Part shown: piece by piece, positions 48,300 to 64,000 of the stretch
Position numbering within the stretch: the first letter of the stretch is position 1
Layout: the number at the start of each line of letters is the position of its first letter
Made by a program: the position numbers and the translations under genes
From: Escherichia coli
GTDB taxonomy: Bacteria; Pseudomonadota; Gammaproteobacteria; Enterobacterales; Enterobacteriaceae
DNA length: 64,000 nucleotides
Direction: 5' to 3' (one strand)
Assembly: GCF_044324785.1 (NCBI RefSeq)
Contig: NZ_CP172127.1
Notes under the pieces: generated by a model
What the model was told of the DNA's origin: nothing
What the model saw: the letters and a program-made list of their open reading frames with translations, nothing else
The model's database searches: none

Positions 48300-56915
<8,616 letters not shown>

Positions 56916-57112
56916 GCTTACCTTCCCTGAACGAGCTAACATAAATGCGCCCTTTCTAGCACAGCGAAAAAAAGTAAATCCTGATAGCAATATGATTGAA
57001 AATTAATAACTTTTCGTTAAGCAGTTTTGAGTGTGAGTTGCAAGAGGGGAGACTACTGAATTACTCAAGTTTTATAATCGAGGGGAAAATGGTGATGGCG
57101 TTCATAGCAAAA

Positions 57113-58294: not shown

Positions 58295-58384
58295 GGAGAG
58301 ATGCCGGAGCGGCTGAACGGACCGGTCTCGAAAACCGGAGTAGGGGCAACTCTACCGGGGGTTCAAATCCCCCTCTCTCCGCCA
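58295..58384 (+). tRNA. serU: tRNA-Ser (CGA)
   Basis: GGAGAGAUGCCGGAGCGGCUGAACGGACCGGUCUCGAAAACCGGAGUAGGGGCAACUCUACCGGGGGUUCAAAUCCCCCUCUCUCCGCCA, 90 nt with long variable arm. Confidence 0.95.
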
Positions 58385-58469: not shown

Positions 58470-59498
58470 TCACGGGTTTCTGCTCAGAACTGTGACATCC
58501 AGCACCGGAATATCCAGAGTCGGAGTTACTGCGGGTTTGCGATCATACGTCAGCACTTGCGCCTCTGTTTTGTGACCAGAGAACAACTGCTTTTCTTTAC
58601 TGCTTCCGTCGTAGTCTGAGATCCCCTTCGCTTTTAAATCGTGAAACGTTCCCGTAATCGGGTAGCCCAGCTTTTCACTTGCCGCCGCCCTGGCTTTACG
58701 CCAGATATCGTTAAATCCGGTATAGCTGTATTGCCCGCCATATTTGTTACAGACCACGAAATGTTGTCCTCCCAACGATTTCGCCTGCTCAAGTGCGAAC
58801 GTCAGTCGCTCTGAATACTGTTTGATCTGCTTTTTGCCAGTCTTACCCTGTTGGATAAACAACCCCTTACTCATTACCTGATCCCACGTCAGCTTTCGTA
58901 TATCGCCGATCCGCGTGGCGCACAGATAGGCGATCTCCATCGCGCACTGTAAAACGGGAGATGCCTCCTGATAAATTGCGATATATTCCTCGTCCGTGAA
59001 ATAGTAGTCGCGGGGCTTGAGGGAAAATTTACTGACGCCCTGGCATGGATTCCCTTTTACGTATCCGCGTTCGTATCCCCAGCGGAATACTCGCGACATA
59101 CTGGCTTTTTCATGGTTCGCCTGTGTTTTGCTTTTCAGCCCCCGCTTGTCCATATACAGCCGCACGTGAGCAGGTTTTATGTTGTCGGCTTTCATTTTCC
59201 CGAACGCGGCGAGTAATTTCTTCTGGTGCTGCAGATAATCCTTTTGTGTACGCTGACCGAGTTCCAGATAGTAGGTGCTGTTGAGAAATTTGTTCCAGAG
59301 TTTACTGAACGTCATGACATCAATAGCATCATTCAGGATCTCTTCGTATTTCACCCATACCTGAGCAATTGACAGATCATTAATTTTACCCAGCGTAATA
59401 CACTCTCGGGGCGTTGGTTTGAAATAATAGCTGTATTTGTTTTTATAAACGCGGGGTGGCAGCTTATTATCTTCCGCGTTTTTTCGTGTTCTGCTCAT
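58470..59498 (-). CDS. int: Lambda-family tyrosine integrase
   Basis: 342 aa; N-terminus MSRTRKNAEDNKLPPRVYKNKYSYYFKPTPRE.. resembles the lambda Int arm-binding domain; C-terminal ..TGTFHDLKAKGISDYD.. catalytic region. Confidence 0.85.
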   Translation of the reverse strand: MSRTRKNAEDNKLPPRVYKNKYSYYFKPTPRECITLGKINDLSIAQVWVKYEEILNDAIDVMTFSKLWNKFLNSTYYLELGQRTQKDYLQHQKKLLAAFGKMKADNIKPAHVRLYMDKRGLKSKTQANHEKASMSRVFRWGYERGYVKGNPCQGVSKFSLKPRDYYFTDEEYIAIYQEASPVLQCAMEIAYLCATRIGDIRKLTWDQVMSKGLFIQQGKTGKKQIKQYSERLTFALEQAKSLGGQHFVVCNKYGGQYSYTGFNDIWRKARAAASEKLGYPITGTFHDLKAKGISDYDGSSKEKQLFSGHKTEAQVLTYDRKPAVTPTLDIPVLDVTVLSRNP

Positions 59499-59713
59499 CA
59501 GATTGCATCAAAATTAGGTTGTTCTTCTTCGGCTATCTGCGCGGGTCTGGCTCCGGACAGCGCGGCGTTTACATGCGTCCACGTGACGCGAGGTCGCCCG
59601 TCGCGGCGTTTTACATAAGAGATCCCGGCACGGGTCAGGGCACCGCATTGTTTTGACGGGAACTGGTAACCGGTCAGTTCAACCAGTTCCTGGTCTGTTA
59701 GCAGGTCGTTCAT
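59498..59713 (-). CDS. xis: Excisionase-like protein (DUF4224-type)
   Basis: 71 aa MNDLLTDQELVELTGYQFPSKQCGALTRAGISYVKRRDGRPRVTW.., immediately upstream of int with overlapping start/stop. Confidence 0.65.
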   Translation of the reverse strand: MNDLLTDQELVELTGYQFPSKQCGALTRAGISYVKRRDGRPRVTWTHVNAALSGARPAQIAEEEQPNFDAI

Positions 59714-59922: not shown

Positions 59923-60105
59923 TTATTTCTGATTAGGCGTAATCAGTTCTGGTGGGGGGAATGCCGATTTCTCCCGCGTGACCTTAATGTTTTCTGGCAG
60001 GTGTAGCCCAAGTTCGCAGCGGCTCCGTGCTTCAATAATGCCATTGGTACCATCGGCAAGTACCAGGTGAACCGCGTCACCACGCTTTAATGTGAGTTTA
60101 AGCAT
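59923..60105 (-). CDS. Hypothetical prophage protein (60 aa)
   Basis: ORF whose start abuts the stop of the upstream gene; no family recognised. Confidence 0.3.
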   Translation of the reverse strand: MLKLTLKRGDAVHLVLADGTNGIIEARSRCELGLHLPENIKVTREKSAFPPPELITPNQK

Positions 60106-60674
60106 TAGCGTACCCTCAGCGAACGTTCGCCGTGTTCCAGATGTGCGCCTGGTACCGGGTTTAATAATTCGGCTGGTGGTGTTTCTCCACGCGCCAGTAT
60201 TTCGGCGGCAACCGCCTCCGCAGATTCAATCACTTCTTTAATGGCTCGTTTGTTTGGTGTAATAACCGTTTCTACATCAACAAGTGACACGCCTTCATAC
60301 TCATCCGGGATCTTATCTTTGCTATCGATAATTACCCGGATAGCCCCCTGTGCATCAGTAAATGTGTTTTTTGCGGTTTTCAGTTTATCCAGGCCAGCAG
60401 CTTGCAGGCAGGCGAGCATATGCTTCCGAATTGCTTTTTCCTTGCCTTCAAAGGACGTCTTACGGGTAGCCAGGCGAGACATTTCTTCAGCGCAGGTACT
60501 GGCATTGCCCTGTAAATTACGGCAGATGACCATCATGGCGTCCAGTTTGTCTCCCAGTTCTCCTTCCATACCTTCAAGCGTGTCGGCGATCATCTCTGGC
60601 GTCAGTTCGTCGGAGGTTTCCAGCAGGTCAATCAGGCTGGCGTATTCTTTTGCAATAGCGATAGCGGTGCTCAT
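60105..60674 (-). CDS. Hypothetical prophage protein, possibly Siphovirus Gp157-like
   Basis: 189 aa, acidic with a coiled-coil-like N-terminus; sits directly downstream of the large gene whose C-terminus looks like a ssDNA-annealing protein. Family assignment is from memory only. Confidence 0.4.
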   Translation of the reverse strand: MSTAIAIAKEYASLIDLLETSDELTPEMIADTLEGMEGELGDKLDAMMVICRNLQGNASTCAEEMSRLATRKTSFEGKEKAIRKHMLACLQAAGLDKLKTAKNTFTDAQGAIRVIIDSKDKIPDEYEGVSLVDVETVITPNKRAIKEVIESAEAVAAEILARGETPPAELLNPVPGAHLEHGERSLRVR

Positions 60675-62884
60675 GCTGTTTGCTCCTGTGCGGCGGCGAG
60701 AGCGGCGAGGCGTTCGGTTTTGATTTCATTCAAACGGCGCAGGCGCGAACCAAGATAAGTTGAATACTCCTTATCACCTTTGGATTCTGCGGCCTTGCGG
60801 TGAACTTCTACTTCCCGCGCAATAAGGCCATAGACTTTATTAACTTCATTGGGGGTTACGGCTGCAGCCAGTGTTTTGGCAACACCTGAGAGTCGTTCAT
60901 CCAGTTCTTCACGCAGTCGGGTAGCATCCTCTACTTTCTCGCTTGCCTTCTTAATACCGTATTCTGTATTCAGCTCGGCGGTGTAGGCACTATCGTTATG
61001 CATATCCATATAAACATCTGCCGCAAATCCCAGATGAGATAGTGCTTTGACGGTGGCATCAGTAAGAGACTTTTTGGAGGCCTCTTTTTCCATTACCAGT
61101 GCCCCTTTGTTATTTTTTGATATGTAATCCGTGTGGCCATATGACGGAATAAATCCTTTCACTCCGTTCCAGATGTACCAGAGATCTATCCGGATGGTGT
61201 GTACTGACAGGCAGAACAGGGAACCGTCAGCATCCCTGACAGGTTTTTGTCCAATAATTTTCCCTGTCTGATCCTGTATAGGTTCAAGTAATGGCACACC
61301 GCGATCCACTCGCTCCTCCTTGATTTCAACTCCCCAACCAATGCCTTCCATTCCCAGCACTTCAGTCGCACGCATCAAAATATATTGTGCGCGTATGGAG
61401 TGCAGTCCTGCACCGTAATCATTATGTGTGACATACGCAGGATCGGTCCGCTGAACGCGATTCCAGATAGCCAAATTTGCTTTGCTCTGGTCATCATTCA
61501 TTGCTGACAGATAATGCTCCATGCGAATTGATGCAGTTTTTTCCTCGGCATGGATCCGCTCAACCAGCGCGTCAACGTTTTGCACCAGGTCTTTTACCTG
61601 CTCGCTAAGTTTTTCTTGTGGAGGAGTCTCTTCTGTCGGGGTAATAGCTGCAGGTTCCCTCTGTGATACTGCGTTATTTTCAGGTACGTCATACACATGG
61701 CGAGGCGTGACAAACTGCTCACGCAACTGCTGCAAACTACGTTCTCCAGCATTTGCTGCTTCGCTTTTTTCGCCCTGATTTGAGGGTGTTTCTGACATCA
61801 TTCCATCAATTGAGAATCGCCCGCCGCCGTGGTTGGTGACTTTTACATCATCCTTTGGTGCTGTTTCCTTTGGCTTCTCTTCAACAGCATTTGCATCACG
61901 CTGCCCGTTAGCTTGCAGCCAGTTGTCGATGTGACTGCGCAGGGATTGCGGGAAGTGGTACGTGTCTTTTGCGGGGGCGCTCTGAATAACACCGAATACT
62001 GATGCGCGGTCATAGGCAAGGATCTGATCCGTTGTGCGCAAGGCCATTGACCAGCGTTTAAAATCCTCCCGATCCTGGCTGATTATTTCGTCTGCCGCTT
62101 TCAGGACGCTGGGGGTGATTTTTTCCGGGCCAACGGGTAACAGGGCGCAGGCAATTTCACGATCCAGTGTGGCGTGAGTCTGTTTGTAAGGACGTGCGGA
62201 CGGTTTTACCTCCGGCAGCATTTCATCGCGTTTACCGGGATTCTCTACCCATTTTTTTATAAATTTGGAGATAGTCCAACTGGTCGGGTTTTGTTCCTGG
62301 GTATCGCAACTTGCCAAAATTGCATGTATCAGATTATTCAATCCAGCAATATGCATGTACTCGATGGGCTTACACGCCACCATGGCATCAAGAACGATGC
62401 GGTTAAACGCGTCAACCTCATCCTCACTGTCAGTATCACTGTTGTCGAGCATCTCCAGGTATTCACGCGTCTGCGCAAGCAATTCACTGTCGACTTCGTT
62501 GGCGTCGTGGCTGAACAGCAGAACGGCGGCGAATCGTTCACGAGCCGGCAGTTTCATCAGGTCGTTAACCTGTGCGATATCTGCTGAACCGCTATCTACA
62601 ACGGGGGTGTTAACTACCCATTTTTCGCCATCAAAACTGTGTTCTGTGGCGAACGTCTCATCAAACTCACCAACGCCTGGGCGCGGTTGGCCCGGGGCAT
62701 CTTCCCAGATTTTAGGTTTGAAATAGTTGTCGCCGTGGTCAGGGTAGGCTTCCCACAATTTGCCGATGATGATGTTCTCGGCAACTTTTTTGTTAGGGGC
62801 GTCGATGGCGATGGCCAGCGCCGGGATCGCGCCGTTTTTGAGCGCGCCTTTTTTCGCTTCTAACAAGCCGTTAAAAATGGTCAT
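60671..62884 (-). CDS. Large prophage early protein (737 aa); C-terminal third resembles Erf/Rad52-like ssDNA-annealing proteins
   Basis: Strong SD (GAGGAAAG) before the ATG; C-terminal region ..GIGWGVEIKEERV..KKSLTDATVKALSHLGFAADVY.. has the signature typical of phage SSAPs; N-terminal about 450 aa unassigned. Confidence 0.45.
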   Translation of the reverse strand: MTIFNGLLEAKKGALKNGAIPALAIAIDAPNKKVAENIIIGKLWEAYPDHGDNYFKPKIWEDAPGQPRPGVGEFDETFATEHSFDGEKWVVNTPVVDSGSADIAQVNDLMKLPARERFAAVLLFSHDANEVDSELLAQTREYLEMLDNSDTDSEDEVDAFNRIVLDAMVACKPIEYMHIAGLNNLIHAILASCDTQEQNPTSWTISKFIKKWVENPGKRDEMLPEVKPSARPYKQTHATLDREIACALLPVGPEKITPSVLKAADEIISQDREDFKRWSMALRTTDQILAYDRASVFGVIQSAPAKDTYHFPQSLRSHIDNWLQANGQRDANAVEEKPKETAPKDDVKVTNHGGGRFSIDGMMSETPSNQGEKSEAANAGERSLQQLREQFVTPRHVYDVPENNAVSQREPAAITPTEETPPQEKLSEQVKDLVQNVDALVERIHAEEKTASIRMEHYLSAMNDDQSKANLAIWNRVQRTDPAYVTHNDYGAGLHSIRAQYILMRATEVLGMEGIGWGVEIKEERVDRGVPLLEPIQDQTGKIIGQKPVRDADGSLFCLSVHTIRIDLWYIWNGVKGFIPSYGHTDYISKNNKGALVMEKEASKKSLTDATVKALSHLGFAADVYMDMHNDSAYTAELNTEYGIKKASEKVEDATRLREELDERLSGVAKTLAAAVTPNEVNKVYGLIAREVEVHRKAAESKGDKEYSTYLGSRLRRLNEIKTERLAALAAAQEQTA

Positions 62885-62914: not shown

Positions 62915-63235
62915 TTAGTAGGGGATTTCATCAGTATCTGGCGTGTATTCGATGCAAAGTAACTGCTGGATTTTGTCATCGATAGCAGCAATACGCTGTT
63001 GGGCGTCGGCGACTGTTTTCTGTTTTTGTTCACGCAGCTGCTCGACCTGTAAACCGATGATGTCGATTGGCTGGGGCTGGTTGACGGTAATTTCAATTTC
63101 GCGGCTTTCCAGAAGGATGTACCTGTCTGGAAAATTTTTTGACATATCAACCGTCGCAATAAGCAGCTTTTCATGGCTGAAAGTTGAAGTTGCATAATGA
63201 ATAAAGAGTGTTACTGGGATGGTGCGCGCTTCCAT
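62915..63235 (-). CDS. Hypothetical prophage protein (106 aa)
   Basis: ORF MEARTIPVTLFIHYATSTFSHEKLLIATVDMSKNFPDRYILLESREIEITVNQ..; no family recognised. Confidence 0.35.
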   Translation of the reverse strand: MEARTIPVTLFIHYATSTFSHEKLLIATVDMSKNFPDRYILLESREIEITVNQPQPIDIIGLQVEQLREQKQKTVADAQQRIAAIDDKIQQLLCIEYTPDTDEIPY

Positions 63236-64000
63236 AGCGACTCCTTGGTGATGTATACTCGGGACCGATCAGCGAATATTGATCAGCTTCCATAGCGTCA
63301 GTGTCGTTGGTCTTTCCTCATCACAAGTTTGGTCACTTGTGATAAATCCGAATGGTTTGGTCGCCGTTCGGGGTAACTGGCCCGCCTTGTGCGGGTCTTT
63401 TGCTATCTAAAGGGTGCCGGTTACGTTTCCGGCGTCGTTATGTTTCCATCACGACCGTACGGGGCTGGTCTTTCCTGTTTTGAGCTGGTCAGGCTCATGG
63501 TCAACGCTGGTCAGGCGTGGTACTTCCTCCGGTCTTTCCCTGGTGTCACGCTGCGGGTTTGGCCTCTCCTGTTGGGGACTCAGGCACAGCGATAAAACCT
63601 GGCTGTGTGAAAAAATGGCCCATCGTGCGGACTGGGCAAAGACTAAACACAGCAAATTGATGATGGGCGCCCGGAATCGAACCGGGTAACGGGCAGGGAG
63701 TTCCCGTTAAACACCTGTTCACCACAACCGGGAGCGCACTCCGCCATTTCAAAATTTAACGACAAAGCTCAAAGTTGAGTCGATGAAGTGCGCTCTCGTG
63801 TTGTAGCCAGGACTCTTCCCTGGTGGTCACACCGTATCGCCTTGATGGTGAATCAATCGCTCATACCTGGCTGTGGCTTGCACATTCCGGCTACCTGCTA
63901 TGGAGACAACGCGTTAAGGCTCCGCTTCCATCCAGACCGCTTCGACACATGTGCCATATGCCGGTGAAGTCTTTCCCTCTGTCATCGTGCTGTCGGCGAC

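Follow-up and report, generated by a model that had tools for sequence, protein, structure and literature searches.

The 64,000-nucleotide stretch of Escherichia coli DNA analysed here (assembly GCF_044324785.1, contig NZ_CP172127.1; hereafter the window) carries a lambdoid prophage, presumably integrated at tRNA-Ser (serU), whose early-left operon includes a gene for a protein of 737 amino acids (aa) belonging to a family labelled either 'exonuclease' or 'hypothetical'. The question raised by this locus is what such a protein does. The preliminary description of the window had proposed a C-terminus resembling phage single-strand annealing proteins (SSAPs) of the Erf/Rad52 type, fused to roughly 450 residues of no assignable family. 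Our analysis indicates that the gene quite probably encodes the single-strand annealing recombinase of the prophage. The open reading frame occupies positions 60671..62884 of the minus strand, stop codon included (all coordinates are on this strand unless indicated otherwise), it is matched over its full length by PHROG 2489, and it specifies a product of 82 kDa with a pI of 5.2. It can be regarded as a real gene, since a good ribosome-binding site (the Shine-Dalgarno sequence GAGGAA) lies 5' of the ATG at 62884, and its TGA overlaps the start codon of the following Sipho_Gp157 gene (hereafter Gp157) as ATGA. This overlap suggests that the two genes are probably translationally coupled.

The evidence for an annealing protein comes from the C-terminal part. 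When aa 424-737 were searched against 1.84 billion cluster representatives (E ≤ 0.001), 2,324 relatives were retrieved, with about 30 long fusions heading the list and the bulk consisting of stand-alone proteins of 240-300 aa, which is the usual size of phage annealases. The AlphaFold2 model of aa 466-737 (predicted local distance difference test score, pLDDT, 96.4; predicted template modelling score, pTM, 0.83) displayed the Rad52 N-terminal-domain fold, that is, a beta-beta-beta-alpha core with flanking helices, so that an SSAP fold was present in the predicted structure of the domain. The core is delimited to aa 466-635 (60980..61489) by this model, by Pfam matches of relatives and by hhalign. 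It is followed by a tail of three helices (aa 636-737, 60674..60979; helices 167-209, 213-236 and 240-271 of the domain model) that many stand-alone relatives also have, and it is preceded by a long acidic helix (aa 428-465, 61490..61603, delimited from the AlphaFold2 model) that is missing from the stand-alone relatives, which start at about aa 468-470. In a family alignment of the query domain with 84 stand-alone relatives, Pfam Rad52_Rad22 (PF04098) was matched by 12 of the 85 members at E ≤ 1e-3 and by 32 at E ≤ 0.1. Moreover, the family profile aligned by hhalign with human RAD52 over 128 columns covering RAD52 residues 46-176 (E 1.1e-4), and the family motif KK..TDA..K..LS..G fell on K144..T148 D149..R153, a segment of the groove that binds single-stranded DNA (ssDNA). 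K613 was placed opposite R153 and D609 opposite D149, with the family consensus KK opposite K152/R153. The residues T507, G511, G514, G518, W569, G583, K604, K605, D609 and G619 are invariant in the family. According to the structural model and these alignments, aa 466-635 very probably adopt the Rad52 N-terminal-domain fold and retain the family signature of basic and glycine residues (K604, K605, D609, K613), and annealase activity would be the likely function of the protein. The SSAP-like C-terminus proposed earlier was therefore borne out (pLDDT 96.4, Rad52_Rad22 in relatives, hhalign E 1.1e-4), and of the two types named the Rad52/Sak one was retained, whereas the Erf type was not: the ERF profile gave no match for the query or for the 85 family members listed in the Pfam scan. 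Searches of PDB sequences with the whole protein or with the profile of the C-terminal domain gave nothing meaningful.

What precedes this domain was modelled from aa 1-465 with an alignment of 42 sequences whose identity went down to 16%. The model consisted of an alpha/beta head, two helical domains (aa 105-230 and 235-330 in the model), a disordered stretch (aa 339-426) and a long helix (aa 428-464). The head (aa 1-93, 62606..62884) lies within the region that bears Pfam YdfE_N (PF27430) in close relatives. The first helical domain (aa 105-230, 62195..62572), delimited from the AlphaFold2 model, is acidic with a net charge of -11 and aligns with the N-terminal region of proteins of the CP-933P type, and the second (aa 231-335, 61880..62194; motif TLD.EIA.AL ... 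F.RWS.ALR) is a 'middle' domain common to RecE, as recognised by NCBIfam, PHROGs and BLASTP. The acidic Pro/Glu-rich linker noted in the preliminary description was recovered at aa 336-427 (61604..61879), where 13% of residues are Glu and 9.8% Pro, the net charge is -5, the pLDDT is below 50 and both column occupancy and conservation are low; it is predicted to be disordered. The RecE family model NF007259 matched aa 231-332 at model positions 264-370 (E 2.6e-12), PHROGs 607, 2082 and 6528 matched the middle domain, and several PHROG 'exonuclease' families covered aa 1-450. By BLASTP, aa 14-327 aligned with aa 15-339 of an 826-aa CP-933P-type protein (25% identity, E 9e-19). The direct BLASTP match to K-12 RecE was weak (E 0.014, RecE residues 263-332), and the link to RecE is therefore drawn through the NCBIfam profile, the CP-933P-type intermediate and the fusion protein P0134 described below. 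The middle domain was conserved across all the diverse fusions examined. Among the matches listed, YdfE_N was precomputed on 120 of 120 relatives, one of them 98% identical to the query; fragments containing only the first ~230 aa kept this match, and YdfE_C was present on some close relatives. Our own Pfam-A scan of the whole protein returned no match, with a library version that predates the YdfE_N and YdfE_C models.

Judged by these similarities, the N-terminal ~335 aa (hereafter the scaffold) are homologues of the N-terminal, non-catalytic part of RecE-like prophage proteins, probably in a form of the YdfE_N type. Thus, the statement that the N-terminal region has no assignable family did not hold for aa 1-335. 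No well-known family covers the whole protein either, as only PHROG 2489 does so, and this family is uncharacterised and carries a transferred 'exonuclease' label. Foldseek against AFDB50 retrieved only members of the same prophage superfamily, annotated as ExoVIII, RecE or PD-(D/E)XK, unnamed or mislabelled, and no other function was indicated; the open literature on YdfE yielded nothing useful. In RecE the function of this region of ~560 residues is a long-standing gap, although it boosts linear-linear recombination (PMC11611040), the reaction that direct cloning exploits and that depends on this region.

The homology just described makes it necessary to consider that the protein is a true exonuclease with its catalysis hidden in the N-terminal region. 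This would agree with the 'exonuclease' labels of PHROGs 2489, 7838, 607 and 2082, with the RefSeq names 'exonuclease family protein' and 'phage-associated endonuclease', and with the real similarity to the N-terminal part of RecE-like proteins. However, the nucleases of these proteins are at the other end. K-12 RecE is composed of Exonuc_VIII (aa 2-178) and a C-terminal DUF3799 nuclease of the PD-(D/E)XK type (PF12684, 615-850), the C-terminal domain being the RecE nuclease (PMC11611040), and the C-terminus of the CP-933P-type protein is an Rv2179c-like DEDD 3'-5' exonuclease (Pfam E 1.6e-68); in the query it is the Rad52 fold that occupies this place. DUF3799 was absent from the query in the Pfam scan and no nuclease domain was found in it. 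The score against the NCBIfam RecE equivalog model was 45.7 bits compared with a cut-off of 1269, and PHROG 7838 'exonuclease' is the stand-alone Rad52-like family itself, which makes its label look transferred from fusions. The name 'exonuclease family protein' of the gene likewise appears to be transferred, because the non-catalytic region is shared with exonucleases. We therefore consider a hidden exonuclease extremely unlikely. The fusion P0134 (775 aa) completes the series, in that RecE residues 1-518 align with it collinearly (49% identity, E 6e-156) ahead of its annealase domain; this combination of RecE head and annealase was found in four loci of IMG/VR. Hence, the scaffold is a portable module that in prophages of Enterobacterales carries a PD-(D/E)XK 5'-3' exonuclease, a DEDD 3'-5' exonuclease or an annealase, and its occurrence on three unrelated DNA enzymes implies that it is an autonomous module. 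As an aside, proteins of Stx and other lambdoid prophages named 'exodeoxyribonuclease VIII / exonuclease' (e.g., in Escherichia phage Evi, L004:3875-6355) have the DEDD domain and not the RecE PD-(D/E)XK domain, and no RecT or Gp157 gene follows the CP-933P-type gene. The ExoVIII name of CP-933P-type proteins is probably wrong too.

For the genomic context, 80 IMG/VR loci were retrieved with the annealase profile. In 74 of them the annealase was part of a long fusion of 586-829 aa and in three it was a genuine stand-alone protein of 274 aa. The gene that starts at or overlaps the annealase stop was Gp157 in 79 of the 80 loci, and the remaining locus ends at a contig edge. In the window this partner gene (189 aa, 60105..60674; PHROG 253) proved to encode a true Sipho_Gp157 protein (Pfam E 2.9e-27), in keeping with the Gp157-like candidate that had been noted downstream. 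Gp157 also follows the divergent fusions P0141 and P0254 and the stand-alone relatives P0155, P0160 and P0204, the order in the latter being annealase, Gp157, SSB. It is not next to the exonuclease versions of the scaffold, which implies that Gp157 tracks the annealase and not the scaffold. The contigs of the stand-alone relatives P0167 and P0184 were too short to be informative. Two other stand-alone relatives, gp20 of Pseudomonas phage LKA5 and P0190, are followed by a PHROG-16469-type protein instead of Gp157, so Gp157 may fill the slot of an alternative partner; in this small sample, the PHROG-16469-type protein may be a partner that excludes Gp157. These proteins of 280-340 aa (LKA5 gp20-gp19, L002 4986-6762; L092 4001-5606) show a weak DUF1351 match and weak matches to exonuclease families. 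We also considered the three-helix tail as an element for docking Gp157, but this was unsupported in the small context sample, as P0190 has a long tail without Gp157 and P0204 has Gp157 with a core-only alignment.

Several results weigh against the annealase assignment and have to be set beside the above. The query itself did not match Rad52_Rad22 even at E ≤ 10, the hhalign probability of the family profile against RAD52 was just 57%, and in this alignment K152 corresponds to V612 and R156 to S616 of the query, with a gap at the position of R55. In addition, matches to RecT, the RecE nuclease or the DEDD domain (three seed sequences only) occurred within 5 kb in none of the 80 loci, and a partner exonuclease that could supply ssDNA was not found. 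The substituted groove residues and the missing exonuclease or RecT could also be explained if the Rad52-fold domain, while binding ssDNA or DNA ends, were mainly an end-protection factor or a RecA mediator, an accessory of the DdrA or Sak kind with Gp157 as its end-binding partner, and did not anneal autonomously. A role as RecA cofactors has been reported for proteins of the Sak type (PMC3945230), and PHROG 253 labels Gp157 'Mu Gam-like end protection'. However, this label could not be reproduced from sequence: Mu Gam itself belongs to PHROG 491, the hhalign probabilities were 0.3% and 4.6%, and a relationship of Gp157 to Mu Gam was accordingly not upheld. The Gp157 profile had no match among PDB sequences, and no paper linking Gp157 and Rad52 was found in the open-access literature. 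Moreover, some stand-alone relatives occupy a classic annealase context, beside SSB or, in the case of LKA5, near SSB and exonuclease-annotated genes, and relatives are also found next to SSB, RdgC-like and exonuclease-like genes. The family-invariant KK..D motif also fits the annealing groove of RAD52. A mainly accessory role thus appears unlikely to us, and an annealing recombinase remains the preferred interpretation.

About 450 of 5,426 complete E. coli genomes had a match to the gene family, which is also common in prophages of Salmonella and Klebsiella. In about 440 of the E. coli genomes only nucleotides 1-1343 matched, at ~96.5% DNA identity. As read off the alignment with the allele of E. 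coli JJ1886 (ST131; L096:3001-5217), identity is ~97% over aa 1-447 but only ~45-50% in the Rad52 core (aa ~450-650), and it reaches ~88% in the tail (aa 650-737). From these sequences it looks as if the annealase core is exchanged as a cassette within an otherwise near-identical gene. A scaffold that stays ~97% identical between alleles whose annealase cores differ by ~50%, and that is conserved over three classes of effector, could mean that the decisive activity lies in the scaffold (e.g., host takeover, anti-defence or inhibition of host nucleases) and that the annealase is just one cargo. An anti-defence protein had also been suggested in the preliminary description as an alternative to a fused recombination protein. 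Yet the scaffold lacks similarity to characterised anti-defence or enzymatic folds, stand-alone annealases paired with Gp157 occur without it, and basic recombination proceeds without the N-terminal region of RecE (PMC11611040). PADLOC, the library of which does not cover anti-defence genes, returned no match for the gene and its neighbours. We therefore hold it very unlikely that the scaffold provides the main activity. Of the two earlier suggestions, a recombination protein was supported by the Rad52-type domain behind a RecE-like N-terminal scaffold, and anti-defence was left without support.

With an annealing recombinase as the preferred explanation, the following course of events can be proposed. 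The 737-aa protein would be made from the early-left operon upon induction and is predicted to oligomerise into Rad52-like rings that would bind ssDNA in the basic groove and anneal complementary strands where ends have been resected or at replication forks, needing neither ATP nor RecA. Since the operon showed no cognate exonuclease, the ssDNA is assumed to come from host nucleases or from replication forks. Gp157 would act as an obligate accessory factor, and the scaffold would provide, from the end of its flexible acidic tether, the same service as it does in RecE. A further possibility, which we put forward tentatively and rate as doubtful, is that the N-terminal region of RecE/YdfE works as a portable platform for targeting and brings interchangeable DNA-end enzymes to one common partner of the host or phage. 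According to the same proposal, the annealase and Gp157 would be a separate, undescribed two-component recombination system with Gp157 in the usual place of the exonuclease, and the core would be swapped as a cassette among genes that are nearly identical, the pressure for this perhaps coming from recombinase-sensing systems of the host.

[quoted passage not shown] Unlike these, it has the three-helix tail and an N-terminal extension of 465 residues, and it is paired with Gp157 and not with an exonuclease. To our knowledge, such an extension is not known for Sak-type proteins, and our literature searches found none. Rac RecE is similar in its size, in its early-left operon position just upstream of xis/int and in its architecture, with an acidic disordered linker between a structured N-terminal region and a C-terminal DNA enzyme, and it has a homologous middle domain. 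However, in the query the annealase replaces the C-terminal PD-(D/E)XK nuclease (DUF3799), Gp157 is downstream instead of RecT, and the head is, judging by close relatives, of the YdfE_N and not of the Exonuc_VIII (PF06630) type. The closest relative of the scaffold is the 826-aa CP-933P-type 'exonuclease' (Escherichia phage Evi, VUF53858.1), which has the same operon position but ends in a DEDD exonuclease and has no Gp157 gene next to it. With lambda Red (Exo/Beta/Gam) and P22 Erf/Abc the locus shares the character of a phage annealing system that is encoded in the early-left operon and is presumably RecA-independent, whereas its SSAP belongs to another branch and its partner is Gp157; homologues of Exo, Gam or Abc were not detected. 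P22 Erf has no dedicated exonuclease, and in this respect the two systems are alike, which suggests that host nucleases are probably relied on.

The gene family is common and has already been clustered (PHROG 2489, Pfam YdfE_N), and the system is not one of a new kind. In the searchable literature we found no description of a Rad52-type annealase C-terminus in this family, of the RecE N-terminal region as a portable module for three effector types, or of a near-invariant pairing of annealase and Gp157 without a detected exonuclease. Reading the family as annealases alters how the recombination capacity and mosaicism of prophages are scored. For the question of the RecE N-terminal region, an autonomous module on three unrelated enzymes opens the way to domain swaps and searches for shared partners. 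The near-invariant pair offers a first way to approach the function of the widespread phage protein Gp157, and the two genes may serve as a new recombineering tool.

The surroundings of the gene are those of a phage recombination/replication module, as the early-left operon holds it with the repressor on one side and xis/int on the other. On the minus strand, a 106-aa gene (62915..63235; PHROG 2479) is followed in order by the 737-aa gene, Gp157, a 60-aa gene (59923..60105; PHROG 2482), the excisionase (DUF4224, 59498-59713) and the tyrosine integrase (58470-59498), the last two closing the operon near the attachment site. The integrase lies beside tRNA-Ser(CGA) (58295..58384, plus strand), which is the presumed integration site, and mtfA, tRNA-Asn and yeeJ adjoin the prophage. 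In a near-identical E. coli prophage the same block comes after the repressor region, and the site equals the early-left operon slot of recE-recT in Rac. The conserved 106-aa and 60-aa genes flank the pair of annealase and Gp157 upstream and downstream, respectively, in most related loci, and several loci with a scaffold nearer the CP-933P type are without both. In the RefSeq relative, the stretch of about 1 kb that separates the repressor gene from the 106-aa gene carries no annotated gene (L001 10654-11649), and the corresponding end of the window (63236-64000) contains only short, unconvincing open reading frames. This gap may be the site of the early-left promoter region, or of small genes or RNAs that have escaped annotation.

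The gene is also the target of a CRISPR spacer. A 32-nucleotide spacer (L097 1502-1533) in the type I-E array of E. coli NCTC9112, located beside cas1e/cas2e/iap, is 100% identical to it. The protospacer (62367-62398) covers codons ~163-173 and is flanked at 62364-62366 by ATG, which is an interference-proficient protospacer adjacent motif for type I-E. The identity of the spacer together with this motif implies that E. coli has acquired immunity against phages with the 737-aa gene. Just beyond the prophage, positions 48300-56990 encode a YeeJ-like adhesin of the inverse-autotransporter type (2,896 aa), in which the internal Ig-like repeats are long and near-identical; the RefSeq annotation of the relative TUM11353 gives the corresponding gene as a pseudogene in two pieces.

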